Part shown: positions 23,675 to 39,547 of the stretch, one piece after another
How the letters are laid out: each line of letters opens with the position of its first letter
Numbering within the stretch: the first letter of the stretch is position 1
DNA from: Rubripirellula sp.
Lineage (GTDB): Bacteria; Planctomycetota; Planctomycetia; Pirellulales; Pirellulaceae
Assembly: GCA_965216875.1 (NCBI GenBank)
Contig: OZ244207.1
Span: forward strand, 512,001 to 576,000
Length of the DNA stretch: 64,000 nucleotides
Direction: 5' to 3'
The notes under the pieces: model-generated
The model's input: the letters and a program-made list of their open reading frames with translations, nothing else
What the model was told of the DNA's origin: nothing
Databases searched by the model: none
Translations under genes and position numbers: made by a program

Positions 23675-24058
23675 ATGAAACGCCCTTCCAAAGGTGACCT
23701 GGAGCTGCTGAGCCTACTGTGGCAACAGGGGCCTATTTCTCTTTCTCAGGCCCACGAGCAGCTGCCGGACGATGTCGCCTACACGACCGTCCAAACTCGC
23801 CTGAATCGACTTGTCGAAAAGGGACTCGCGACTCGCGAAAAGGTTGGCCGCCAGCCGATGCGATACAGCGCCGCGGTAGGCCCTGAAGAGATCGACACCA
23901 GCCAGCTCGACTCGCTCGTCCAACGAATCGCGGGCGGCTCCGTTTTGCCGCTCGTCGCACATCTGGTTCAGAAAAACGACTTCACGGCGACCGAGCTTTC
24001 CGAACTCAAGAAGCTTGTTCGCGACGCCGAAAAGCGATCGAAGGAGGGGGACAAATGA
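23675..24058 (+). CDS. BlaI/MecI/CopY family transcriptional repressor
   Basis: LELLSLLW...YTTVQTRLNRLVEKG winged HTH and C-terminal GGSVLPLVAHLV...ELSELKKLV. Confidence 0.92.
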   Translation: MKRPSKGDLELLSLLWQQGPISLSQAHEQLPDDVAYTTVQTRLNRLVEKGLATREKVGRQPMRYSAAVGPEEIDTSQLDSLVQRIAGGSVLPLVAHLVQKNDFTATELSELKKLVRDAEKRSKEGDK

Positions 24059-26553
24059 TCTGGGAAACGTTGCTTGATTATTCCCCGAACCTGTTGCGTG
24101 GTTCCTTGTTGCTTGCCGTCGCCTCCTGCCTTGCGATTGGCGGGACAAAATGGCTTGGCGATGTGGGTGGGCCAACAGCGAGCCTGGTTTGGTCGATGGT
24201 TTTGATCACCGGCATGATCGTGGTTCCCGCGCATTTGCAGGTGGCATGGTACGCTCCCCCGGAACCGACGTCGTCCGAGTGGGCCTCACCTGCGACCACG
24301 TTGCCGCAGGCGGAGAGCTCCGCAGCGGTTTCACGAGCGCATATCGATAGCGGCGTTGCACATGCGACGGTCGCACCACACCACGCCGAATCACCCAGCA
24401 AGACGCCATCGATTGGGATCGCTTCCGTGTGTGTCGCGTTGTGGTTGATCGGATCGGCTTTGCTGTTGGTCGTTTCCACTGCTTCGTATGCCGGTCTGTT
24501 GATTTCGCTGCGCCGCTGTTGGCGACCACAAAAAGATTGGTTGGACGAATACGAGCGAGTCTCGCATCAGTTTGGAACCACGTCACCACCGCGGCTTGTT
24601 GTTCATCCGACCCTGGGGCCGTTCCTTTGTATGACGCCGCTGGGAAACAGGCTTGTCATTCCTGCTGACCAATGGTCGTTGCTCAGTCAACATCAGCGAG
24701 AAGCGGTGATCCGGCACGAGCTTGCCCACCACCGTCGTCGGGATCTGCTGCGTTCTTTGCCGGCCCAGTTGGTTGTCCTCGTGCATTGGTTCAACCCGTT
24801 TGCTTGGTACGCCGCGCGGCGTCTCGAGGAAAACGCCGAAATCGCGGCTGACGCACAGGCGATTGGACAAAGTGGCCAGCACGCCGGTGATCTTGCAGCA
24901 GCGTTATTGACGCTTTCGCAAGGGACGTCGCGCTCGCTACTCATTGCGTCCGCAGCACGGCCACGTGGTTTGAAGCGTCGATTGCAGCAATTAGCAGGGC
25001 ATTCAACTCACCAAACTAATGGTTCCCTCGCAAAACGAGCCGCTGTGATCGTCGCGATGCTGAGTCTGCTTATGGTTTCAAGCGTTCAGATTCAATTGGT
25101 CGCGCAAGAGGCTCAAAACGGTTCCGGCGATTCGCAGCCGCCAGCCGTATCGATCGAGACAGCAAAGGATCTTGCCGGACAACTCGCGATCGATGACGAG
25201 CTGACGCAGTCGCTTCATGATGCCTTGCAAACGCGACCGGGCACGATCGTTTTGCGTGATCGCGTTGGAGCGTACGAAAACGCGGCGCGGCTCCTCGCTC
25301 GCTACGAAGCGGTTCCCAAGTTCTTCGAAGAGAACTTTACTCGAACCGACAATGGTCTTGCGCTAAGGGAAGATCGCAAGGACCTCTACCTCCGATTGGC
25401 GACGGAGTCCAAGAAGCTTAACGATGACATCGACAAGCTGAAAAAGTCGATGCGAGACAAGGCGGCAGCGCTGAAGGTTGAATCGGATCTCGACAAGCTG
25501 GTGCATCGATTCCTCGTTGATGATGCGACACCCGTCATCCTGTACTCGCGTCAAATCCGAACGCAGCTGGCCGGCATGCAAAGTCTCGAGCGGGTCTATG
25601 CCGATGTGATCGCCAAACGTGCGGACGGGAAATATGCACTGCGTCCCGACGCGCGAGAACAAACCGAGGCGAGAATCCAGCAGTTTGAAAAACGCAGAAA
25701 GTTGATCGAGCGGTTGCAGCAGGACCTTGTCGACTTTGCCGACGATATCGCGCCGACCGATCCGATGCACCAAGACCTCAAACGCTTGCTCGCTCACCCG
25801 ATTGTCACGACGCAGTTGGCGTTGCCACTGATCGATTCGGACCAGCCACCGCGTCAACTCTCCGAACGAATCATTGGCCAATTCGACAACTCCTTCGTTG
25901 AAGGCGCTGAGGGATTGCAAATGCGCGACGAAGTGGCCGAGAACATCAAGCGGATGGTGGTTTCGATGCAACGCGTCGTGGACGTCACCGAAGGACTCCG
26001 AGAACCGCTCCGGCAATTCGTCAGTCAGATGACCGAAGAGACCGAGCTTGATCGTAAATTGAAAAGGGCGATGGGCATGGAGATCACGCTCGTTCGCACT
26101 GCGAGTCGTGTTCAATATGCCGGCTCGGATGTTTCGGTCGCTGTTGATCGCTATTTCGCGAGCTTCCTTTCTGAGGATGACAATGGGACGCTAACAATCA
26201 ACACGTCCAACGTCACCGAGCAACAGATCACAGGCTTGGTGTCAGGCATTTTCCGTGAGGCTCGTATCGCCCGACGTCGCGGCCGCGAAGTGACCGAGTT
26301 GACCGAATTGATCACCGATCAAGTGCTCAAGGAAGTGATGATGTCGCCAGGAGGAAAGATTGCCATCGGTGATGCGTTGCGCGACGCTTTGGCGCAAACG
26401 GCGACCAACGGACTTGATCAATGGATCGCCGATCATTTGGCTGAGGTCGAAAATGGTCGGTACAGCATCCTGGAAGAACGCCGGCCAGCGATCGTCGAGT
26501 TCGTGAGGCAGGTCGATGACCTCAAACGAGAGAGCGAAAATGCGGATTTTTAG
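24055..26553 (+). CDS. BlaR1-like M56 metallopeptidase with a long helical extracytoplasmic domain
   Basis: TM helices, HELAH zinc motif, HWFNPFAW and EIAAD. ATGA overlap with the BlaI-like gene. Confidence 0.9.
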   Translation: MIWETLLDYSPNLLRGSLLLAVASCLAIGGTKWLGDVGGPTASLVWSMVLITGMIVVPAHLQVAWYAPPEPTSSEWASPATTLPQAESSAAVSRAHIDSGVAHATVAPHHAESPSKTPSIGIASVCVALWLIGSALLLVVSTASYAGLLISLRRCWRPQKDWLDEYERVSHQFGTTSPPRLVVHPTLGPFLCMTPLGNRLVIPADQWSLLSQHQREAVIRHELAHHRRRDLLRSLPAQLVVLVHWFNPFAWYAARRLEENAEIAADAQAIGQSGQHAGDLAAALLTLSQGTSRSLLIASAARPRGLKRRLQQLAGHSTHQTNGSLAKRAAVIVAMLSLLMVSSVQIQLVAQEAQNGSGDSQPPAVSIETAKDLAGQLAIDDELTQSLHDALQTRPGTIVLRDRVGAYENAARLLARYEAVPKFFEENFTRTDNGLALREDRKDLYLRLATESKKLNDDIDKLKKSMRDKAAALKVESDLDKLVHRFLVDDATPVILYSRQIRTQLAGMQSLERVYADVIAKRADGKYALRPDAREQTEARIQQFEKRRKLIERLQQDLVDFADDIAPTDPMHQDLKRLLAHPIVTTQLALPLIDSDQPPRQLSERIIGQFDNSFVEGAEGLQMRDEVAENIKRMVVSMQRVVDVTEGLREPLRQFVSQMTEETELDRKLKRAMGMEITLVRTASRVQYAGSDVSVAVDRYFASFLSEDDNGTLTINTSNVTEQQITGLVSGIFREARIARRRGREVTELTELITDQVLKEVMMSPGGKIAIGDALRDALAQTATNGLDQWIADHLAEVENGRYSILEERRPAIVEFVRQVDDLKRESENADF

Positions 26554-27880
26554 CTGTGCTCTCTGCATTGCAATCTCGTTGGCGGGAAATGGCTGGGGCG
26601 GCGAGATCGATGACTTTCTGGCGACTGCCCACCGTAAGGCCGGCGTCAAAGCAGCGCCGGTATGTTCGGACGATGAATTCCTAAGACGCATCAGCCTCGA
26701 TCTGATGGGGCGGATCCCAACACGTCAGGAATTGGTTGATTTTCGACAACGCCCCGATCGTCGCGCAAAGATTGAGGAGCTTTTGGCCAGTGAGGATTTC
26801 CCACGGTTCTGGGCCGAAGTTTGGACGGCGTCGCTTGTTGGTTACCGCACGCGCGCCTTCAACGTGAGTCGCGAGCCGCTCCGCAAGTGGCTCGAAGAAT
26901 CATTTGCCGATGATGTCGGCTACGACGAGATTGCGGGCGAGTTGATCGCGGCCGAGGGCGAGTCTGCGTTTGATGGTCCGGTGAACTTTGTTGTGCGTCA
27001 TCGAGAACAACCCGCCGTCAAGGTGTCACGCTTCTTTCTCGGTGTGCAACTTGATTGTGCTCGATGCCACGACCATCCGTTCGATCGCTGGACGAGTGAG
27101 GATTTCGAAAAGTTCAACCAGTTTTTTCGCAGCGCAACCTATTCGCCGGTCTCGCAGCGGAACATTCGCGTCATCGAAACGCCTCGCAACGTGCGCGAAG
27201 AAGATAAACCGCGATTCCTGACCGGTGCCGAGCCGACCACAAACCGTTGGCGTGATGAGCTTGCCTTTTTCGTGACGACATGCAAACCGTTTGCAAGAAA
27301 CTACGCCAACCGAGTTTGGTACCAGTTGCTCGGACGCGGCATCGTTGATCCGCCCGACAGCTTTGTCGACGGAGCTGCGGTTGCTCCCGAGCTGCTTGAA
27401 TTCTTTGCCCAACAAACTCGCGACGATGATTTCGAGCTCCGTCCACTGGTGCGAATGATTTGCCAATCGGATGCCTACCAGCGGGAATCAGGTCACTCGA
27501 ATCTCTCCGAGCAAGCCAACGCGTTGTTCGCGAGTTATGTCCCCAAACCGATGACGACTGTCCAGCTTCTCAATTCACTCGAGACCGCAACGGGCATCCG
27601 GCTAAGCAGCACCGAGCGCGGACGTAGGCTCGCACGAACGCTTCAATCTTCGATCGACGATGACTTCAGCCAGACATGGAACTATCGCGATACCGTTCAA
27701 AACGTGATGCAGCGACTGGTCGAAGAACATGAGTTTCGCGATTCAAGCATCCACGCGTTGTACGAAAAGATTCTCAGTCGCAGCCCCACTCCGAGCGAAC
27801 TCAGCCTCTGTCGTGGCCGCAACAAATCGCAAATTGTGTTTGCGTTGATCAACAGCAACGAATTTCGTTTCAATCACTGA
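26540..27880 (+). CDS. DUF1549/DUF1553 domain protein
   Basis: SDDEFLRRISLDLMGRIPT, FLGVQLDCARCHDHPFDRW, FARNYANRVWYQLLGRGIVDP and C-terminal NSNEFRFNH. Confidence 0.92.
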   Translation: MRIFSCALCIAISLAGNGWGGEIDDFLATAHRKAGVKAAPVCSDDEFLRRISLDLMGRIPTRQELVDFRQRPDRRAKIEELLASEDFPRFWAEVWTASLVGYRTRAFNVSREPLRKWLEESFADDVGYDEIAGELIAAEGESAFDGPVNFVVRHREQPAVKVSRFFLGVQLDCARCHDHPFDRWTSEDFEKFNQFFRSATYSPVSQRNIRVIETPRNVREEDKPRFLTGAEPTTNRWRDELAFFVTTCKPFARNYANRVWYQLLGRGIVDPPDSFVDGAAVAPELLEFFAQQTRDDDFELRPLVRMICQSDAYQRESGHSNLSEQANALFASYVPKPMTTVQLLNSLETATGIRLSSTERGRRLARTLQSSIDDDFSQTWNYRDTVQNVMQRLVEEHEFRDSSIHALYEKILSRSPTPSELSLCRGRNKSQIVFALINSNEFRFNH

Positions 27881-27914
27881 ACGTCGCGTACTTGAAAGAC
27901 AGGTGCACGGTCCA

Positions 27915-29153
27915 ATGTCCAAACAAACCATGTTTGAATCGACTCGGCGACAATTCTTGAGTTCGGTTTCGACCGGCGCTGCCCTGTTGGCAACGGCACG
28001 CCAGACGTTTGCTGAGGTTGCAGGGGGAAGCTCCAATTCACGCGCGAAACGATGCGTCGTCCTGTGGATGAACGGTGGCCCGAGTCAATTCGAGACTTTC
28101 GACCCCAAACCTGGTACCTCCACCGGCGGTCCGACCGAGGCGATTGCCACGAACGTGCCCGGCATCCATCTATCACAGCATCTACCACAACTGGCCAAAC
28201 GCGCTGACAAGCTTGCTGTGGTTCGCAGTGTGACATCCAACGAAGGAGAGCACGAACGCGCTCAGTACTATTTACATACCGGGTTTCAATTGGTTCCCGC
28301 TTTTCCGCGTCCAGCGTTGGGTTCGGTGATCTCGTTCCAGCAGGAGGCCACCGCGACCCCCAACTACGTATTGCTCGGTGACCAGTCGATTGGCCCGGCG
28401 TATTGTGGGCCCGATCATGCGGCCTTCGCGATCGAGAATGCAGATTCGGCAAAGCAATTGTTGGGACAGATCGAAAACCGAAACGCCGGCATTGATCTGC
28501 TTCGCCAGCTCGGGCAAGGCTTTGATGATCGAAATCGTTTTCCTGATGTTGAACGACGTTCGGCGATGCTGTCGAAGCTACAAAGCATCACCGAGACACC
28601 GTTTCGCAACTCACTTGACCTTGCTCAAGAAAAGGACGCAACGCGCATGCGTTATGGCGACCACCTCTTTGGTCGACGATGTTTGACGGCTCGAAGGTTG
28701 TTGGAAATTGGCGTGCCATTTGTTGAAGTGCAACTCAACGGCTGGGACACTCACACCGACAACTTCGCGCAAGTGCAACGATTGGCTCGGCCCATGGACC
28801 AAGCTTGGTCGGCACTGATGGATGATTTGGTTTCGTCTGGACTGTGGGACGACACCCTGATCCTTTGGATGGGAGACTTTGGACGCACGCCAATCATCAA
28901 TGCGAACAATGGAAGGGACCATTTCCCCAGCAGCACGCCGGTTGTGTTTTCCGGCGGCGCCGTCCGCGGCGGTCAGGTGATTGGTCAGACCAACGCGGAC
29001 GGCACCGCGATCGATGGAAAGACGCATCGTGTTGCCGAGGTGGCAGCGACGCTGCTTTCGCGATTGGGCGTTGCGCCCGACCAGACCTTTCAGACCTCCT
29101 TTGGCAGCCCAACCGAGGCGACCGACGATGGGATCCCGATCGAATCGCTCTAG
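27915..29153 (+). CDS. DUF1501 domain protein (Tat)
   Basis: TRRQFL, WMNGGPSQFETFDPKP, ARRLLEIGVPFV, GWDTH and GDFGRTP. Confidence 0.93.
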   Translation: MSKQTMFESTRRQFLSSVSTGAALLATARQTFAEVAGGSSNSRAKRCVVLWMNGGPSQFETFDPKPGTSTGGPTEAIATNVPGIHLSQHLPQLAKRADKLAVVRSVTSNEGEHERAQYYLHTGFQLVPAFPRPALGSVISFQQEATATPNYVLLGDQSIGPAYCGPDHAAFAIENADSAKQLLGQIENRNAGIDLLRQLGQGFDDRNRFPDVERRSAMLSKLQSITETPFRNSLDLAQEKDATRMRYGDHLFGRRCLTARRLLEIGVPFVEVQLNGWDTHTDNFAQVQRLARPMDQAWSALMDDLVSSGLWDDTLILWMGDFGRTPIINANNGRDHFPSSTPVVFSGGAVRGGQVIGQTNADGTAIDGKTHRVAEVAATLLSRLGVAPDQTFQTSFGSPTEATDDGIPIESL

Positions 29154-29227: not shown

Positions 29228-29437
29228 GAATCACTCGGGCTGCAACGCGGAATCAGCCGCGTAAACCCCGTCCTGGAAGGGGTTTAGGGCAACTTTCGAG
29301 GCCCCAAAGACAGATTCGCAATGGTGTGTACAATGGACTCCACGATGCCACCCGCCTGAATCGTTTCTTGATTCAACTCGTCCGCTGATGCGTTCGAGCC
29401 CAACTTCAGTTGAAAAGATTGTCAAAGGCAGAATTTG

Positions 29438-30517
29438 ATGAAGCCCTATTTGCGTTTTTGTGCCCTCTTTGCCGCGGTGCTGTCCGTATCGGTTGGTCTG
29501 GGCGCTTCGGTCGGATTGGCCGATTCCCACACTCTCCATTTCGCTCCGGCCGATGGCAAGGCAAACGGCAAGAAGGTCGTTCTGGTTGCGGGTGACGAAG
29601 AGTATCGCACCGAGGAAACCATGCCGATGCTCGGCAAGATCCTCAGTCAAACTCATGGTTTCGATTGCACCGTTGTCTTCGCTCACTCGGAAGACGGAAC
29701 CTACATCGATCCAAACAACCAACTTGGTCTTCGTGGACTCAAAGCACTCGATGATGCTGACTTGATGATCATCGGCACGCGATTCCGCAAACCGAACGAA
29801 GAAGAAGCTGCCCACGTCACCAAGTACCTCAACGCCGGCAAACCGATCATCGGGATTCGGACGTCAACACACGCGTTCAATGGTGACGGCACTTTCGGGG
29901 GCTCGCTCGCTTTCGCTGATTTTGGTCTGAACATTCTTGGCGAAAAATGGGTCAGCCATCACGGTGGGCACAAGAGGGAAGGTGCTCGGGGCTATGTCGA
30001 AGAGGGCAAGGCAGATCACCCCATCCTGAATTCGGTCAGCGATGTCTTTGCACTCAGTGACGTCTATGGCGTGATTCACTTGACCGATGCAGACAACATT
30101 TTGATGCGAGCGGCCGTCACGGAATCGCTCGAACCGAGCTCGAAGGACGTCGCGGGCAAAAAGAATGATCCGATGCAACCCTTCGCATGGATCCATCCAT
30201 ACACCGCGCCTTCGGGAACGGCCGGCAAATCGTTTTGCACCACGGGGGGCGCTTCGGTCGACTTTTTGAACGAAGGCCTGCGTCGCATGGTCGTCAACGC
30301 TGCCTTCCACATGACCGGAATGGAAGTCCCTGAAAAGGCAGACGTCGCTTTCGTCGATCCTTTCTATCCAAGCTTCTACGGTTTCATCCGCGAAAAGACT
30401 TGGTGGAAGGATGCCGACATGCAGCCGTCGGATTATGACCTGGGCAAGACACCGACTGCCAACGACCCCAAAGGAACTCCCAACTGGGATTTCTGGCGTC
30501 CTCAAAAAAAAAAGTAA
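29438..30517 (+). CDS. Secreted ThuA-like domain protein (5' half of a probable frameshifted gene)
   Basis: Signal peptide, KKVVLVAGDEEYRTEETMPMLGKILSQ, GIRTSTHAF and FCTTGGAS. Ends CAA AAA AAA AAG TAA within an A10 run. Confidence 0.88.
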   Translation: MKPYLRFCALFAAVLSVSVGLGASVGLADSHTLHFAPADGKANGKKVVLVAGDEEYRTEETMPMLGKILSQTHGFDCTVVFAHSEDGTYIDPNNQLGLRGLKALDDADLMIIGTRFRKPNEEEAAHVTKYLNAGKPIIGIRTSTHAFNGDGTFGGSLAFADFGLNILGEKWVSHHGGHKREGARGYVEEGKADHPILNSVSDVFALSDVYGVIHLTDADNILMRAAVTESLEPSSKDVAGKKNDPMQPFAWIHPYTAPSGTAGKSFCTTGGASVDFLNEGLRRMVVNAAFHMTGMEVPEKADVAFVDPFYPSFYGFIREKTWWKDADMQPSDYDLGKTPTANDPKGTPNWDFWRPQKKK

Positions 30518-33500
30518 CTGACGGCGCATTCGTTCCGCAGAAAGGCCTGCGTATCGCGGCCGTCGGCAACGCCCTTGCCGAGCGGATGAATGAATACGGT
30601 CATTTTGAAACCATGTTGCACACCCGATTTCCTGAAAAGGAATTGGTGTTTCGCAACTTTGGTTGGCCAGCGGACGAGGTTTCTAATCGACAGCGTCCAA
30701 GCAACTACACAAAGATCGACGATCCGCTAAAGGTTTTCGCTCCCGAGCTGTTCCTTTGTTTTTACGGGTTCAATGAGTCGTTTGCTGGCGACGACGCGGG
30801 GACCATCAACAGTTTCGCGTCGGCTTACCGACTCTATCTTTCCAACCTTGCCAAGGACTTTGCCAAGGATGGACGCACGCCTTCGTTCATCCTGGTTGGG
30901 CCGACTGCATTCGAAGCGACGGGCAATCCGCTACAGCCATCGGGTGTCCAGGAAAACGCTCGTCTGGCCAAGTACAACGCCGCGATCAAGAAAGTCGCTC
31001 TCGACGACGGCCATCTTTTTGTTGACCTGTTCGATTTGACCAAGCAAATGTTTGGTGCCGATCCAGGCAATCAATACACCACCAACGGTGTCCACATGAA
31101 CGAGCGTGGCGACGCTCTGGTGGCCAGCTTGATCGACAAGAGCCTGTTTCGTGGCAAGCATCCACAGGCGTCAAATCGCGAGGCGTTTGACAGGGTGCGT
31201 CATTGGGTCAACGACAAGTCGTGGTTTCACCAACAAGACTACCGCATGCTCAACGGTTGGTACGTCTATGGTGGCCGGCGGACGTTCGATACCGAAACAT
31301 TCCCGACCGAGTACCGCAAGATTCGCAATATGGTCGCGGTGCGTGACCAATACATTTGGAATCTCGCTGCCGGACGCGACGTACCCGACTCGCCTGATGA
31401 TTCGGCTACGGGAGATGTCTTCGAGCCCGAGACGATGTTCGGCACTCGCGATCAGAATTTTCGTGAAATGCGCGAGCCGCAAAAACTGGTTTACCCGACT
31501 CCCGAAGAGTCGATCGACATGATGACCGTGCCAGAAGGTTTCAAGGTCGAACTCTTTGCATCGGAACGGGAATTCCCAGAACTTGCCAATCCGAATCAGA
31601 TTGCGTTCGACAACAAGGGCCGTTTGTGGGTCTCGTGCATGGCGAACTACCCGCAATGGCAACCCGGTGCTGCGAAACCGAACGACCGATTGCTGATCTT
31701 TGAAGACACCGACAAAGACGGCAAGGCCGACAAGTGCACGCCCTTCTATGACAAATTGATTTGTCCGACCGGTTTCGAGTTCTGGAATGGCGGCGTGCTC
31801 GTCGTTGACGAACCCCGCATCCTGTTCCTTAAAGACACCGATGGTGACGATCGAGCTGACTATGTCGAACAAGTGATCGACGGGATCGCGACCGATGACA
31901 CGCACCACACTGTGGGCGCATGGGAATTTTCTCACGGCGGACGCCTGCACATGCTCGAAGGCATTCAGCTCTCGACCACTCTCGAAACTCCCTGGGGGCC
32001 CTTTCGAAACAAAAGCACCGGTGGCGGTTACATCTTTGACCCACACTCGTTGAAGATCGAACACTACCGCACGCCCGGTTACGGAAACCCTTGGTGCCTC
32101 GTTTTCGATCGTTGGGGTAACGGCATCGTTGGTGACGGAACCAACGCTCGACAACACTGGCTCGTTCCGCTCGCCGGAAAGGAAGTCAGCTCGCGGCGCA
32201 CGATGGAGCCTGTTTTTGACAACGAAAACATGCGGCCGGCCGTTGGCAACGAGTTTCTCTATTCGCGTCACTTGCCTGACGATGTTCAAGGTCAATTCAT
32301 CTACGCATGTGTGATCAACATGCACGGACTGACTCGCTTCAATGTTCGCGACGAAGAAGCCGGCGCTGGTTTCGAAGGCGAACGCATCAAAAACTTGCTC
32401 GATTCGACCGACATGATCTTCCGTCCGGTCGATCCCAAGATCGGCCCCGATGGTGCGGTTTGGTTTGGGGATTGGTGCAACGCATTGATCGGCCACATGC
32501 AGTATTCGCAGCGTGACCCCAATCGCGACCATTCGCACGGTCGGATCTACCGCTTGGTGTATGAAAAGAAGGATCTGCTCGAAACGCTTACCCTTGATGA
32601 CAAGTCGGTTCCTGAGTTGCTCGAACACCTCAGTTCGACCTACGAGCTTCGTACTCGGTACCGTATTCGTCGTGAGATTCGCGATCGCGAAAAATCGGAA
32701 GTGTACGCCGCGGTCAAAAAGTGGATTGAAGGTGTTGACGACCCAATGCGCCTCTGCGAGGCGATGTGGATTCAGGAGAGTTTCCGTGATCTCGATGCGA
32801 GCCTGCTCGACAAGATTCTGGATTCGGATGAATACCGCGCCCGGGCTGCGGCGATTCATACAATCACGAATGAACGCGACCGCGTGTCCGACTTCAAAGC
32901 ACGCTTAAAGACCGCCATCAACGATTCGCACCCACGCGTTCGGCTCGAAGCGGCTCGTGGTGTTAGTTTCCTTGACGACCCCGAAGCGACCGCTTTGGCG
33001 CTCGCGATTGCGAATCATCCCACCGACTACTGGATTGACTACACGCTCGAGCACACGCTCCACGCCTTGAAAGGCCAATGGCAGGATGCGGACCTCGACA
33101 AACTGTTGGCCGGTTCCTCCGAGCGTGCAAAGACGTACCTCGAATTGCACAAGCGGATGACGGGCCCTGGCGGCGCGGCGGTCAAGCCTCTGAAGATCGC
33201 CGAGGACGTTGACCGTTCGAAAGCGGAACGATTGTCGGCCGTCCAGCAGTTGCTGCGTGTGCGTGGCGGTCGGGCTCATCGCGGAGCTCCCGTATTCAAA
33301 CAAGTCTGTTCGGCTTGCCACAAACTTGGCGATGTCGGCAAGGCGTTCGGTCCCGATTTGACAGGGGTCGCTGGGCGATTGAGCAAGGAAGAAATCGTGC
33401 GCAGCATCTTGCTGCCCAACGACAAAATTGCCAAAGGGTTCGAAACGGTCCAGATCTTGGACTTTGACGGCGAGACTCACCGTGGTTTCGTGATCAAAGA

Positions 33501-34173
33501 AGACGACGAAACGGTTTCGCTAGGCATTGCAAACGGCAAGCAAGTTGACATTGCAACGGACGACATCGAGGTGCGCCGTGACATGAAGGCCAGCTCGATG
33601 CCCGAAGGCTTGATGGCGCAGATTGCCCCGATCGAATTCCTTGATTTGATCGCGTTCCTTGAGCGTCAAAAAGAGATCACGATGCAGGTTCGACCTGACG
33701 GATGGATCACGGCACGCTCGACAAAGGAGCCAAAGCTTCGTGCGTTCAATGGCTTTGCCGAAATCTCGCGTGATGCTGACATCCAACTTGGTCCGACCAT
33801 GACGAACTCGTCATGGAACGATCGGGTTCATCTGTTGCTTACCGATGTCAAACCATCAGGTTTGGGATTTGTGTTCCATTCGGCCGACGGAGCGGAAGAG
33901 CCGGCGATTACGATTCGCTTGGCAAAGGAATCGGACATCCGACACATCTGGCTGCAGAATCGACTCGAGTCACAGTTCTTCTCGCGTGCAGAAGGACTGA
34001 CGATTTGGGTCAGCAATGATGGAAAGGATTTCAAGGAAGTTTGGCATGCCGAGAAACCGAAAGCCGAATGGACTGCCGATCTGCCCGCAGGCGTTCGAGC
34101 CAAGTACATTCGCATCGGACTCGTCGGACGCGGCATCTTCCACCTCAACCGAGTCGCCGTCTTCGGCGAGTAG
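30514..34173 (+). CDS. PVC-type heme-binding protein (SGNH + beta-propeller dehydrogenase-like + HEAT + cytochrome c + discoidin-like); 3' half of a probable frameshifted gene
   Basis: Frame is open from GTA at 30514 (VTDGAFVPQKGLRIAAVGNALAERMNEYGHFE). Contains NGVHMN, VPEGFKVELFASE, DTDKDGKAD, CSACH, GPDLTGV and SSMPEGL. No signal peptide of its own; the first ATG (30586) lies inside the SGNH domain. Confidence 0.9.
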   Translation, partial: VTDGAFVPQKGLRIAAVGNALAERMNEYGHFETMLHTRFPEKELVFRNFGWPADEVSNRQRPSNYTKIDDPLKVFAPELFLCFYGFNESFAGDDAGTINSFASAYRLYLSNLAKDFAKDGRTPSFILVGPTAFEATGNPLQPSGVQENARLAKYNAAIKKVALDDGHLFVDLFDLTKQMFGADPGNQYTTNGVHMNERGDALVASLIDKSLFRGKHPQASNREAFDRVRHWVNDKSWFHQQDYRMLNGWYVYGGRRTFDTETFPTEYRKIRNMVAVRDQYIWNLAAGRDVPDSPDDSATGDVFEPETMFGTRDQNFREMREPQKLVYPTPEESIDMMTVPEGFKVELFASEREFPELANPNQIAFDNKGRLWVSCMANYPQWQPGAAKPNDRLLIFEDTDKDGKADKCTPFYDKLICPTGFEFWNGGVLVVDEPRILFLKDTDGDDRADYVEQVIDGIATDDTHHTVGAWEFSHGGRLHMLEGIQLSTTLETPWGPFRNKSTGGGYIFDPHSLKIEHYRTPGYGNPWCLVFDRWGNGIVGDGTNARQHWLVPLAGKEVSSRRTMEPVFDNENMRPAVGNEFLYSRHLPDDVQGQFIYACVINMHGLTRFNVRDEEAGAGFEGERIKNLLDSTDMIFRPVDPKIGPDGAVWFGDWCNALIGHMQYSQRDPNRDHSHGRIYRLVYEKKDLLETLTLDDKSVPELLEHLSSTYELRTRYRIRREIRDREKSEVYAAVKKWIEGVDDPMRLCEAMWIQESFRDLDASLLDKILDSDEYRARAAAIHTITNERDRVSDFKARLKTAINDSHPRVRLEAARGVSFLDDPEATALALAIANHPTDYWIDYTLEHTLHALKGQWQDADLDKLLAGSSERAKTYLELHKRMTGPGGAAVKPLKIAEDVDRSKAERLSAVQQLLRVRGGRAHRGAPVFKQVCSACHKLGDVGKAFGPDLTGVAGRLSKEEIVRSILLPNDKIAKGFETVQILDFDGETHRGFVIKEDDETVSLGIANGKQVDIATDDIEVRRDMKASSMPEGLMAQIAPIEFLDLIAFLERQKEITMQVRPDGWITARSTKEPKLRAFNGFAEISRDADIQLGPTMTNSSWNDRVHLLLTDVKPSGLGFVFHSADGAEEPAITIRLAKESDIRHIWLQNRLESQFFSRAEGLTIWVSNDGKDFKEVWHAEKPKAEWTADLPAGVRAKYIRIGLVGRGIFHLNRVAVFGE

Positions 34174-35690: not shown

Positions 35691-37133
35691 CTACGGCGCT
35701 AGTGAGCTGAGGTCGAGGCTGTCATTCATTTCCTTTTGCAGCTTCTGCAATCCTGCGAACAGGTCTTTCAATACCGGTTTCATCCCGGCCTGATCCGCCA
35801 GATCCTTCATTTCTAACGGGTCATTCTTGATGTCGTAAAGCCGCAGCACGTTTGCATTCGGGTAGGCGATCAACTTGTATTGATCGGTTCGAATGGAGCG
35901 TTGCTTTTCGAGGTAGGCTCCGTAAATCGCCTTGTACGGACTCTTGCCACCTTCGAGGAGCGGCAGGACGCTGTTGAATTCAACGTGCTGAGGCTTGTCG
36001 ACTTTGGCCAGTTCCAACGAAGTGGGCATGATGTCCTGCAAGTAGACCGGCTCCGAAATCTTGCGTCCCGATTTCACGCCGGGACCGACAACGATGAACG
36101 GAACGCGGACGCTGTGGTCGTAGAGGTTTTGCTTGCCCAGCAAGCCATGTTGGCCGACGGCAAGACCGTGGTCAGCAGTGAAGAAGATCCAAGTGTTGTC
36201 GGCTTTTCCCGTCTTTTCCAATGCGTCGAGCATCCGACCGATCATCGTGTCCATGTGAGTGATGATGGCGTAGTACTCTTGTCGGTGAACCTTGACGGCA
36301 TGAGGAGTGCGAGGAAACGGCGCCAACTTTTCGTCACGCAGTTTCTTGCCGGCGCCGATCTCTTCGGCGTAAGGGTAAAGTGGCTGGAAGTTCTGGGGCA
36401 CTTGCACGTCGTCAACGGGATAGCGATTCACATACTCGGCCGGCGACTGCCGAGGATCATGGGGAGCGTTGAAGGCCAGGTACATGAAAAAGGGTTCGTT
36501 CCGCTCGCCAGCTTCGGCCATGAAGTCGTCGGTGTGATTGGCAACCACTTCGCTCCAGTGCGTGCCCCCTGCCCAGAACCCGCCAAACTTCGGATCCGAT
36601 GGTGACCAAGGATCGTTTCCGTCGGCAAGCGGTCGGTTGTAGCCCGCTTTGGTGTCTTTGGGCATGCCAGGACGAACATCACGAACAACATCGAACGATT
36701 TGTCCGCGCTCGCTCGGCAGTGCCACTTGCCCGTCATGTAGGTGCGGTAGCCCGCTCGCTTCATGATCTCGCCCCACCAACGCCCTTGCTGACGTTCCTG
36801 GTCCGACGTTGCATGGATTGCATTGGCGTTCCAAACGAACCGACCCGAGTTGAGCATCGTGCGACTAGCGACACAAACCGCTCCACTCCAGGAACCCATG
36901 TTGTAGGCATGGGTGAAAGTCGTGCCCCGTTTGGCGAGACGATCGAGGTTCGGCGTTTCCACCTCTTCATTGCCAAGTGCATTGATGGTGTCAAAGCATT
37001 GGTCGTCCGCAAAGATAAAGACGATGTTTGGACGTGTTTCCTCGGCCGACACTGTGGTTGTGAAAAGGATGGCGGCAAACGCAAGGCAAGCAAGCCGACC
37101 AAGAATCTGTACAGGACGCATGAGATGGAACAT
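35691..37133 (-). CDS. Sulfatase (choline-sulfatase-like)
   Basis: PNIVFIFADDQ, SWSGAVCVASR, GKWH, APHDP, TADHG and GKQNLYDHSVRVP. Start may instead be at 37121. Confidence 0.92.
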   Translation of the reverse strand: MFHLMRPVQILGRLACLAFAAILFTTTVSAEETRPNIVFIFADDQCFDTINALGNEEVETPNLDRLAKRGTTFTHAYNMGSWSGAVCVASRTMLNSGRFVWNANAIHATSDQERQQGRWWGEIMKRAGYRTYMTGKWHCRASADKSFDVVRDVRPGMPKDTKAGYNRPLADGNDPWSPSDPKFGGFWAGGTHWSEVVANHTDDFMAEAGERNEPFFMYLAFNAPHDPRQSPAEYVNRYPVDDVQVPQNFQPLYPYAEEIGAGKKLRDEKLAPFPRTPHAVKVHRQEYYAIITHMDTMIGRMLDALEKTGKADNTWIFFTADHGLAVGQHGLLGKQNLYDHSVRVPFIVVGPGVKSGRKISEPVYLQDIMPTSLELAKVDKPQHVEFNSVLPLLEGGKSPYKAIYGAYLEKQRSIRTDQYKLIAYPNANVLRLYDIKNDPLEMKDLADQAGMKPVLKDLFAGLQKLQKEMNDSLDLSSLAP

Positions 37134-37169
37134 TGGGTAGATGTGGTGTGATTTCGAGTGTGCGAATAG

Positions 37170-37241
37170 TGATTGTCGCCTTTTGCTCCGCAAAAGTTGC
37201 GTTCACGGACGCTACTTTCGCGGAGCGAAAGGCGACAATCA
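37170..37241. repeat. Long intergenic inverted repeat (TGTCGCCTTTCGCTCCGCGAAAG-type)
   Basis: TGATTGTCGCCTTTTGCTCCGCAAAAGTTGCGT-tcacgg-ACGCTACTTTCGCGGAGCGAAAGGCGACAATCA. Confidence 0.85.
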
Positions 37242-37373
37242 AGAAAACACAGCCCAGCGGCGGCCGCCGGTCGGCCCGATTCTAACTCAATCGAACACGC
37301 CATGCGTTGGAGATCGCTTGACGGTGGCACCCGCTTGTTCCGGAATCGGAATGCGTCTCCACGCGAAGCCGCT

Positions 37374-38066
37374 CTAGGAACGCGGCAGGTAGATATCGAC
37401 CAAATTGGGCCGAAAGACTCTGTATTTCACGCCGTGTCGCCAGAGCTTGAAGTAGGCTTCGAGAGGATCGTTCAGGCCACTTCGCTCGGCATAGATCGGC
37501 CACATCAGGTAGTCGCGTAGCATCGCGTCACAAGCAGTGAAGTAAAACGCTGGCCGCAATGCCTTGGCAAATCCAGCCTCGTCTTCGAGCTTGCTGACGA
37601 GCGCCGATCCATTGTTTTGAATCGCCAGCAGCAACTCGCTCTTTTCGGCGTCGTCTTTGGGATGCTTGGGAGCAGTGCCTTCGAGTACTCGGATCTCCGG
37701 AACGGGATCGAGTTGACTCGACAAGGTTTCATCGCCCACCTTATCCGAGATAGATCGTAATCCTGTCAGCCATTGGATTGCTGTCTGCTCGGCATCATCG
37801 GGATCAAGCTTGGGGGGATTGCGAACAACGAAGTAGGCATCGCGCCCACCTTGAGGGCGACGGTCTTCACCAGCGGCCGAAAAGAGCAGATCGAGACGCT
37901 CTTCGATCGCTTTCCCTTCCGGCACCGGATCGAGGATTCCCGGTATTTGTTTTCCGTCTGGACGAAACGCCTGGAAAATGCCAATCAGCGAATCGGAGTC
38001 GACCGCATCACCATCGCCGGTTCCCGCATGATGATGAACGTGGCGGATCAGGGCCTCAACAGACAT
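37374..38066 (-). CDS. Hypothetical protein (230 aa)
   Basis: Long ORF with coding-like composition that fills the gap between two sulfatases. No recognised motif. Confidence 0.75.
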   Translation of the reverse strand: MSVEALIRHVHHHAGTGDGDAVDSDSLIGIFQAFRPDGKQIPGILDPVPEGKAIEERLDLLFSAAGEDRRPQGGRDAYFVVRNPPKLDPDDAEQTAIQWLTGLRSISDKVGDETLSSQLDPVPEIRVLEGTAPKHPKDDAEKSELLLAIQNNGSALVSKLEDEAGFAKALRPAFYFTACDAMLRDYLMWPIYAERSGLNDPLEAYFKLWRHGVKYRVFRPNLVDIYLPRS

Positions 38067-38161
38067 GGAAGCAATCGATTCAAAGCGTGGAAGTTGGCTT
38101 TCGTTTTCCCGGCAAACGCGGAATATACCGTGAACCGATCAAACGTGTCAGTCGTTAACAT

Positions 38162-39547
38162 TCACTGCACCCCCGAATACTCTTCGACGCCCATGCGTTT
38201 CTCCCAGGTCCTGAGTTCTTCGACCAAGGAGGTGACGATTTGGGGCTTATCCTTCGCGATGTCGTGTTGCTCGGCGCGGTCGCTGTCCATGTCGTAAAGA
38301 CTCACCTTGCCACTTCGGTACGCCAGCAACTTCCAATGATCCTTTCGCACCGAGACATAAAGATCTTCGTAGGCTCGGTAGGCAAAAAGCGGTTCGTTGC
38401 GAACGAGTTCACCGTTCGACTTCAGCGTCGGCAACAACGAGATTCCATCAAGTCGATCGAAATCCGATGGATCGCCTCCTGCAACTTCGACGAGTGTCGG
38501 AAAGAGGTCGGTGGTTTGCACGATGCTTGAATTCGTTTGGCCGCCATCGATCACATTTGGCCAGCGGACAATCAGGGGCACTCGAGAGCCCCCTTCACAC
38601 AGCGTGTCGGATCGTTTGCAACCGCGGTAGGGTGACCACTCAAACAAACTGCCCTGATCGGAAGTGAAGATGATCATGGTGTTCTCGGCAATCTTCTTGT
38701 CGGCGATTGCCTGAAGAATCCTGCCGACCGATTCGTCTACCGCCGCCACTTGCGCGGCATAGTCAGCACGTTTCCCTTCCAGGCCTGGTGTGCCAACCAC
38801 TCTCTCTTTGAGGTCCTTCCGGCCGATATTTGGGGAATGCACGTTGTAATACCAAAGCGAAATCATGAACGGCTGGTCTCGCCGATACTCTTTGATAAAT
38901 CGAACCGTTTCGTCCGTGAGTCGGTCGGTCAGGTATTCGTCTTTTGCGTCAGGAAAGACTTCACCGTGGGGCGAGAACGGTGGGTAGTAACTCTTGGGGT
39001 GCCCGAAGTTGCTGGTCCCAATTTGACGGTCGAACCCTTGATGGATCGGATGATACGGTTCATGTCCGAGGTGCCACTTGCCCACAAAGAGGTTGTAGTA
39101 ACCACGTTCCCGAAGCGCTTCGGCATAAGTGATGTGTTCGAGCGGAAGCCAATTGCGACATGGGAATTGTGCCGGATCGGTTTTCCACAAATTGAACTCC
39201 ACGTCCGTGCGACCGTATTGATCAAAATCTGGATGCTTGGGACCGGTCGGAATATGACGGACCATCTCTAGCCGAACAGGGTGCAAACCGGTTAGCAGTG
39301 TTGCTCGACTGGGACTGCACGTGGGGCTGGCAACGTAACACTGTTGAAAGTCCATTCCCTCGTCAGCGAGCTGGTCGATATTCGGCGTTTCGAATCGTTC
39401 AGGATCGCGATAGCCCAGATTGTTCCAGCCAAGATCGTCAACGAACAGAAGTACCACATTGGGTGGATCGCCAGCGCGAGCAAGTATTGGATCGCCAACA
39501 AAGAACGCCAGAAGCAGGAGTGAGGGGACAGATCGCGCGACCATCAT
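38162..39547 (-). CDS. Sulfatase (arylsulfatase A-like)
   Basis: PNVVLLFVDDLGW, CSPSR, GKWHLG, TSDQG and EGGSRVP. Confidence 0.93.
   Translation of the reverse strand: MMVARSVPSLLLLAFFVGDPILARAGDPPNVVLLFVDDLGWNNLGYRDPERFETPNIDQLADEGMDFQQCYVASPTCSPSRATLLTGLHPVRLEMVRHIPTGPKHPDFDQYGRTDVEFNLWKTDPAQFPCRNWLPLEHITYAEALRERGYYNLFVGKWHLGHEPYHPIHQGFDRQIGTSNFGHPKSYYPPFSPHGEVFPDAKDEYLTDRLTDETVRFIKEYRRDQPFMISLWYYNVHSPNIGRKDLKERVVGTPGLEGKRADYAAQVAAVDESVGRILQAIADKKIAENTMIIFTSDQGSLFEWSPYRGCKRSDTLCEGGSRVPLIVRWPNVIDGGQTNSSIVQTTDLFPTLVEVAGGDPSDFDRLDGISLLPTLKSNGELVRNEPLFAYRAYEDLYVSVRKDHWKLLAYRSGKVSLYDMDSDRAEQHDIAKDKPQIVTSLVEELRTWEKRMGVEEYSGVQ

Follow-up and report, generated by a model that had tools for sequence, protein, structure and literature searches.

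An A10 run at a ThuA/SGNH domain junction in Rubripirellula as a candidate transcriptional slippage site

A ThuA-heme c gene divided between two reading frames

In a 64,000-nucleotide stretch of the Rubripirellula sp. genome (assembly GCA_965216875.1, contig OZ244207.1, positions 512,001 to 576,000; hereafter the window, the genome that holds it being termed G000), a run of ten adenines (A10) lies at 30504-30513 on the + strand, at the junction of two long open reading frames (ORFs). The zero frame encodes a leader and a ThuA-like domain and passes through the run as ...CGT CCT CAA AAA AAA AAG TAA, with the stop at 30515-30517. The -1 frame continues into a large multidomain body. The following features were located.

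29438..30517, + strand: zero-frame ORF with leader and ThuA-like domain, 359 amino acids, ending ...RPQKKK-stop (Pfam ThuA PF06283, E=1.4e-8)
29438..29524, + strand: likely Sec signal peptide (basic start, hydrophobic core; translation judged by eye)
30436..30438, + strand: TGA closing the -1 frame 5' of the run (reading of frames)
30504..30513, + strand: A10 run, candidate slippage site; the same junction carries A10 in genomes G025 and G167, and one added A would bring the downstream frame into register
30514..34173, + strand: -1 frame body, 1,219 amino acids past the run, without leader (translation)
30515..30517, + strand: TAA, end of the short product (reading of frames)
30518..30566, + strand: hairpin proposed earlier; it folds, at chance level, and is not conserved
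30519..30521, + strand: TGA of the third frame (reading of frames)
30547..31116, + strand: SGNH/GDSL-like domain (Pfam PF13472)
31501..32565, + strand: DUF7133/TIGR02604 propeller of the PVC-type heme-binding CxxCH protein family (profile match)
32803..33039, + strand: HEAT repeats (profile match)
33271..33666, + strand: TIGR02603 heme c domain with CSACH at 33307-33321 (profile match)
33871..34125, + strand: F5/8 type C (discoidin) domain (27.7 bits, just below the cut-off of 28.2)

With TAA at 30515 and TGA at 30519, both non-fusion frames end directly 3' of the run, as in Thermus dnaX. The -1 frame is open from 30439 to 34173 and its first ATG, GTG or TTG is found at 30586; before this position its start-like codons are limited to CTG at 30484, 30493 and 30547 and ATC at 30553. 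Addition of one A to the run joins both parts into 359 + 1,219 = 1,578 amino acids, and an ortholog that is encoded in frame (P0002) comprises 1,579. A first-pass annotation, made from the sequence alone, had placed the A10, the TAA, the upstream TGA at 30436 and the first ATG at 30586 as found here. It had also described the -1 frame body as carrying CSACH, lacking a leader and having SGNH block I upstream of 30586, and this was confirmed: the first strand of the SGNH domain as well as block I sit 5' of that ATG.

The downstream body scored 183.6 bits against TIGR02604 (cut-off 122.2) and 105 bits against TIGR02603 (cut-off 68.15), and thereby passes both curated cut-offs for PVC-type heme-binding CxxCH proteins (TIGR02604, TIGR02603, DUF7133). 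Attachment of heme c takes place outside the cytoplasm. Active SGNH hydrolases are characterized by a serine in block I and a DxxH motif in block V. The window protein has Ala where Ser stands in 106 of 120 homologs, and NGVH replaces DxxH, likewise in most homologs; because of these two replacements the SGNH domain is probably non-catalytic. A search against solved structures gave no match for the ThuA part, and the downstream part matched only a diheme protein, across the heme domain.

The run in independent sequences and in orthologs

For one sample, from which the assembly may have been made, contigs from all four sequencing runs spanned positions 29400-32400 at depths of 114-359 with no differences and no gaps. 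In strain X5, which stems from an independent algal metagenome of another study, the run was bridged without gaps at a depth of 33. X5 differs from the window by 9 substitutions in 759 nucleotides (~1% divergence), and 7 of 8 listed substitutions are synonymous overall, as are 4 of 5 within the -1 frame. A single 151-nucleotide record across the site (X6, depth 3, identical to the window) was excluded from the independent counts, the contig of X7 begins within the run and does not bridge it, and P0001 was not counted apart from X5. No RNA run was listed among those matching the stretch, which has no bearing on its expression. The evidence for A10 consists of contigs, in which rare alleles vanish, and a minor A11 population could be hidden. 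A homopolymer assembly error, which the first-pass annotation had expected to appear as A11, is ruled out by the A10 contigs of the deep sample and of the wild strain X5, two separate studies.

Long runs of A are markedly depleted in the remaining coding sequence of this genome. Its 8.26 Mb contain only 19 A/T runs of at least 9 nucleotides, five of them of length 10. Within 2,735 stop-to-stop frames of at least 400 codons (first 40 codons removed, which leaves the A10 of the window outside the count), one A-run of at least 9 was seen, compared to ~26 in synonymous-codon shuffles (8 shuffles). Likewise, 3 of 188 KKK triplets in G000 start with AAA AAA, where 21% were expected. The A10 at the junction thus exceeds chance. 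No terminator was found at the junction between ThuA and the -1 frame, and promoter and terminator scans yielded chance-level counts.

Orthologs were compared in 96 genomes with one locus each: 80 of 401 genomes with a ThuA match at E<=1e-45, G058, and 15 fused loci taken from 60 regions that had been fetched via an SGNH search. In-frame fusions were found at 45 loci and a standalone ThuA protein at 46, while two loci lie at contig ends and three are out of frame. All three of the latter carry A10, namely G000 and the genomes G167 and G025, two species of another genus (g24). A shift of -1 is required in G167 (CCGG-A10-G), and of +1 or -2 in G025 (CCG-A10-G). G231, the third genome of the g24 genus, has a more distant ThuA only, without a downstream partner at its locus. 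The linkers of the 45 in-frame fusions hold A-runs of 2-6, never above 6, and most of the standalone ThuA proteins stop within ~20 codons of the end of the 359-amino-acid product. According to the first-pass annotation, orthologs that are always fused or always separate would have spoken against a recoding site. The out-of-frame A10 recurs in two other species, although the hairpin drawn by that annotation is absent at both; its claim of a real out-of-frame A10 at a domain junction is therefore supported by contigs, frames and orthologs.

The out-of-frame A10 is present in two separate lineages. In a 13-row tree (quick search, LG+G4) G000 clusters with the in-frame G002 and G360, and a clade of G000, G025 and G167 was rejected by the approximately unbiased (AU) test (p-AU 3e-5), which points to at least two origins of the out-of-frame run. 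Fused and standalone states alternate along a 96-row quick tree calculated without bootstrap. The downstream frame is intact and under purifying selection. Between G025 and G167 it comprises 1,206 stop-free codons with a synonymous divergence (dS) of 0.20 and a ratio of nonsynonymous to synonymous divergence (dN/dS) of 0.06, the value also obtained for the in-frame pair G012/G158; dN/dS of the downstream body was 0.07 between G000 and G002 (near saturation).

These values bear on the idea that the locus consists of two separate genes or of a young pseudogene, the downstream frame being translated from the ATG at 30586 or decaying. The ATG exists, and a product of this kind is called in gene annotations (P0001, P0014, P0016, P0032), but a start at 30586 would cost the SGNH domain its conserved first strand and block I and yield a CxxCH protein without leader. 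Together with a stop-free frame at dN/dS 0.06, this makes two genes or a pseudogene highly improbable. The lack of a leader further sets the split body apart from nearly all standalone SGNH-propeller genes: of the 60 SGNH loci fetched, the remaining 45 lack an upstream ThuA, and the majority of these open with a hydrophobic leader of their own (by eye). The P0032 cluster (source label Crateriforma conspicua, 10 members) has the same linker in split form, and P0014 and P0016, which start at an internal Met, are possible further split cases.

A second set of 80 named loci, mostly from Verrucomicrobia and partly overlapping the 96, comprised 44 fused, 31 standalone and 5 cut loci, none of them out of frame. 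In 179 kb of fused ORFs from this set only four A-runs of at least 8 were present, all located in frame in the ThuA/SGNH linker, three of them with near stops in both other frames. An internal frameshift in G001 lies away from any A-run; it is unrelated and likely an assembly error. When 27 of 64 metagenome parts were scanned for the C-terminal motif of ThuA with a run of A8 or longer behind it, 114 loci were returned; none had ThuA or a downstream homolog, and all were discarded as chance hits.

Probable recoding at the run

Among the 19 A/T runs of G000, three lie where one long ORF passes into another at -1, and a fourth is in dnaX. The two junctions outside the ThuA gene join a PhnD-like binding protein to a PQQ-like propeller and belong to the paralogs L382 (G000:C1:2186936) and L387 (G000:C1:5238264), which are split at A9 and A10. 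This family was present at 60 loci in 54 of 173 genomes, and 59 loci were examined, one match at a contig end being left out. At 39 of these the propeller is at -1, in 38 cases with an A8, A9 or A10 (2, 32 and 4 loci); 7 loci are in frame, 10 have no partner in the locus and 3 are separate genes without run. L438 is the one locus in frame at A10. The runs at -1 occupy three codon phases and are never just the A6 required by A_AAA_AAG. For dnaX, 30 of 40 matches in 41 genomes were examined (L386, L492-L521; the copy of G000 is L386 at G000:C1:4930636, - strand). An in-frame A9 or A10 was found at codons 383-443, likely the gamma/tau boundary, in 28 of the 30 Pirellulales loci; its codon phase varies, and both other frames reach a stop 3-31 codons later. 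In these features Pirellulales dnaX has the layout of the Thermus slippage site.

The first-pass annotation had put forward programmed -1 ribosomal frameshifting on A_AAA_AAG with a 3' hairpin, as in E. coli dnaX and IS3, as one possible mechanism, another being transcriptional slippage. In favour of the former, both G000 and G167 have the heptamer in phase with a stop behind it, the 38 out-of-frame junctions of the binding-protein family that carry a run are without exception -1, and at 36 of 41 sites the base after the run is G. The hairpin indeed folds as drawn, beginning 4 nucleotides past the run (-22.6 kcal/mol), but 33 of 200 shuffled sequences were equally stable (z -1.0 to -1.5), the 3' structure gave z values of +0.4 in G025 and -0.8 in G167, and z was below -2 at only 3 of 41 comparable A-run sites (mean -0.44). 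As a stimulator the hairpin was rejected, being a chance-level fold that is not conserved. The duplexes with the anti-Shine-Dalgarno sequence at the three ThuA sites (-4.0, -1.4 and -2.7 kcal/mol) do not amount to a Shine-Dalgarno signal, and no consistent upstream Shine-Dalgarno-like pairing was found over the 41 A-run sites. Moreover, in G025 a -1 shift meets a stop, the runs are always at least 8 long, and tRNA-Lys(CUU) is present. With the hairpin at chance level and G025 in need of +1 or -2, ribosomal frameshifting appears quite unlikely to be the lead mechanism.

Transcriptional slippage is favoured instead. RNA polymerase would slip on the A10 that splits the gene at the ThuA/SGNH domain boundary: unslipped mRNA would be translated to the exported 359-amino-acid ThuA protein, whereas mRNA with one extra A would give the 1,578-amino-acid ThuA-SGNH-propeller-HEAT-cytochrome c-discoidin fusion. 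The single signal peptide would serve for export of both forms, slippage would set their ratio, and both forms would be under selection. In this way the run may let one gene yield both products that relatives encode as alternatives, which we propose because the relatives alternate between 45 fused and 46 standalone forms with repeated switching on the tree.

Slippage is preferred since a run length of 8-10, and not an A6G heptamer, is kept in several codon phases, since G025 is beyond rescue by -1, and since 3' structure and Shine-Dalgarno pairing are inconsistent over the 41 sites. In addition, G000 harbors three tRNA-Lys(CUU) genes next to four tRNA-Lys(UUU) genes, and passages of PMC5009743 link tRNA-Lys(CUU) to slippage instead of ribosomal shifting in Thermus; 28 of 30 related dnaX genes carrying Thermus-type A9/A10 runs argue in the same direction. 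The same passages describe slipped mRNAs with one or more extra A in falling proportion, which fits the -1 layout and would mean a lower yield of full-length product in G025. Sequence features expected for transcript realignment are found at the site: a homopolymer of at least 8-9 A at the transition, near stops in the non-productive frames, and a run and transition shared with G025, G167 and X5 at dN/dS 0.06, in 2 lineages among the 96 genomes. We regard it as very probable that recoding of some kind produces the fusion, and as rather probable that slippage gives two useful products. The two products of 359 and ~1,580 amino acids proposed in the first-pass annotation are thus supported as the best reading.

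Several observations weigh against slippage as the source of two selected products. The in-phase heptamers of G000 and G167 also suit ribosomal frameshifting, and the frequent G after the run is unexplained and could favour a ribosomal contribution. Of the 96 genomes, 91 lack the device, among them the two closest to G000, namely G001 and G002, which are plain in-frame fusions without run; at the ThuA fusion gene it appears lineage-specific. Since the frame differs between G025 and G167, an indel must have occurred at the DNA level at or beside the tract, and the frame of either genome may be a sequencing error. Finally, the four deep runs represent one sample, known from contigs in which rare alleles are lost.

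The rarity and patchiness at the ThuA fusion gene (3 of 96 genomes, 2 lineages), the different frames of the two g24 species and the frequently Lys-rich linkers of the family would also be compatible with a tolerated break, in which a Lys-rich linker drifts to an A-run, an indel follows and background slippage rescues the frame, the short product being an unselected by-product. However, such runs are purged from other coding DNA (1 versus ~26), the short product resembles the natural standalone orthologs (46 of 96), A9/A10 with near stops recurs in the same linker in a second phylum, and the sister binding-protein family holds the out-of-frame state over many genera. A tolerated break is therefore considered unlikely.

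Phase variation at the DNA level, the alternative offered by the first-pass annotation, would have the tract toggle between OFF (A10) and ON (A11) within the population. An exported protein with a mononucleotide tract, the different frames of G025 and G167 (one base beside the run) and the in-frame A10 of L438 agree with such a switch. Yet every bridging contig, from the deep sample and the wild strain, reads A10 (rare alleles being lost), as do the three genomes, and 38 of 39 run-bearing binding-protein loci are in one OFF phase. To a lesser extent the protein searches also speak against it: the best 120 longer hits included no long protein with >70% identity to the ThuA part of G025, and an in-frame version of the G000 gene did not turn up. 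Phase variation is thus very unlikely.

Known systems, related runs and possible meaning

Citrobacter rodentium tssM1 (A11) and Yersinia pseudotuberculosis tssM3 resemble the window gene in that an A-run immediately precedes a premature stop in a gene for an envelope protein; slippage leads to a short and a full-length protein, in-frame and out-of-frame versions occur by species, and most orthologs are without run (passages of PMC4256274). For tssM, experiments established slippage of 20-25% and showed that both forms are needed (same passages), whereas the window gene is known from sequence only. The latter further differs in that its short form corresponds to a natural standalone ortholog and that at one linker the run probably has two or more origins. 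In Thermus thermophilus dnaX, too, an A9/A10 marks a domain boundary and the two remaining frames are closed by stops, and in a two-ORF dnaX cluster with A10 the long product needs recoding, as would the window gene (parts of PMC1088944, PMC3711429 and PMC5009743). In contrast, dnaX encodes a cytoplasmic replicase with fixed complex stoichiometry, while the window gene encodes a putative exported multidomain heme protein of patchy occurrence. With E. coli dnaX and IS3, described in part of PMC3711429 as A_AAA_AAG with upstream Shine-Dalgarno sequence and 3' hairpin, it has the heptamer of G000 and G167 in common, but it lacks a conserved hairpin or Shine-Dalgarno sequence, its run is longer than needed, and the +1 case of G025 and tRNA-Lys(CUU) set it apart. 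Slippage is likewise required for the longer or fused product of the secretion or chromosomal genes mxiE, mxiA, spa13 and spa33 of Shigella and of pgk-tim (cited in passages of PMC4256274 and PMC1088944), which belong to other families and another phylum, and mxiE has a U-run.

In a literature search that left most subscription papers out of reach, neither slippage nor frameshifting was found described for these families or for planctomycete dnaX. The survey in PMC3711429 includes 2 planctomycete genomes only; two of its supplementary files gave no match for Pirellula, PQQ or ThuA, and a listing in file 1 is possible.

Further runs were noted in G000 and relatives. In the PVC-type gene L486 (G012:C1:4110300-4114400; DUF1080, ThuA, NPCBM, DUF7133) an in-frame A10 occurs twice, first where DUF1080 meets ThuA and again close to the beginning of the NPCBM region. 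Stops lie nearby in the other frames at both runs, and nested products could result. The ThuA-NPCBM-propeller gene L412 (G002:C3:2128357) has an in-frame A10 just past ThuA with near stops in both other frames. In polyketide synthase-like genes A10 follows a carrier-like domain or precedes a thioesterase-like one (by eye); L484 (G012), L404 (G167) and L482 (G025) are in frame at the run, and L401 (G012) is out of frame (-1). A polynucleotide phosphorylase-like gene (by eye) at G000:C1:419116 has an in-frame A9 among its first codons. Long ORFs also change frame at A6 at G000:C1:6890851 and 1454636 (- strand), 4270536 (+) and 7047410 (-), and these junctions may be ordinary gene overlaps.

The ORFs around the gene (23675-29153 and 35691-39547) include a BlaI/BlaR1-like pair, DUF1549/DUF1501-like proteins and two sulfatase-like proteins (by eye, from translations). 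Because of the sulfatase-like neighbours a role of the putative fusion in glycan use may be guessed. TIGR02604 proteins are described as putative propeller glycoside hydrolases, one of which was shown to be a beta-galactosidase (part of PMC7397252). The same ThuA subfamily is fused to sulfatase domains in P0122, P0124-P0127 and P0130, suggesting a mobile N-terminal module.

Taken together, the A10 of the window is real and probably functions in recoding, by a mechanism known from tssM and dnaX but new to this gene family and phylum. In annotation pipelines such genes come out as a short ORF plus a fragment without leader, or are labelled as pseudogenes. To our knowledge, productive polymerase slippage is known in few chromosomal genes. 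The ThuA gene would add an exported heme-protein family; this family, dnaX and the binding-protein genes jointly point to order-wide use in Planctomycetota. More tentatively, with a confidence just short of even, the A9/A10 'KKK' linkers of Pirellulales could be a general switch that has been invented again and again and renders C-terminal domains optional in dnaX, binding-protein/propeller, ThuA/PVC heme and polyketide synthase-like genes. If true, this switch would be a bacterial counterpart of alternative splicing, and the ThuA gene would represent an evolutionary midpoint between the fused and standalone forms of its relatives, offering a testable route by which domain fusions and fissions evolve via a state that makes both products.

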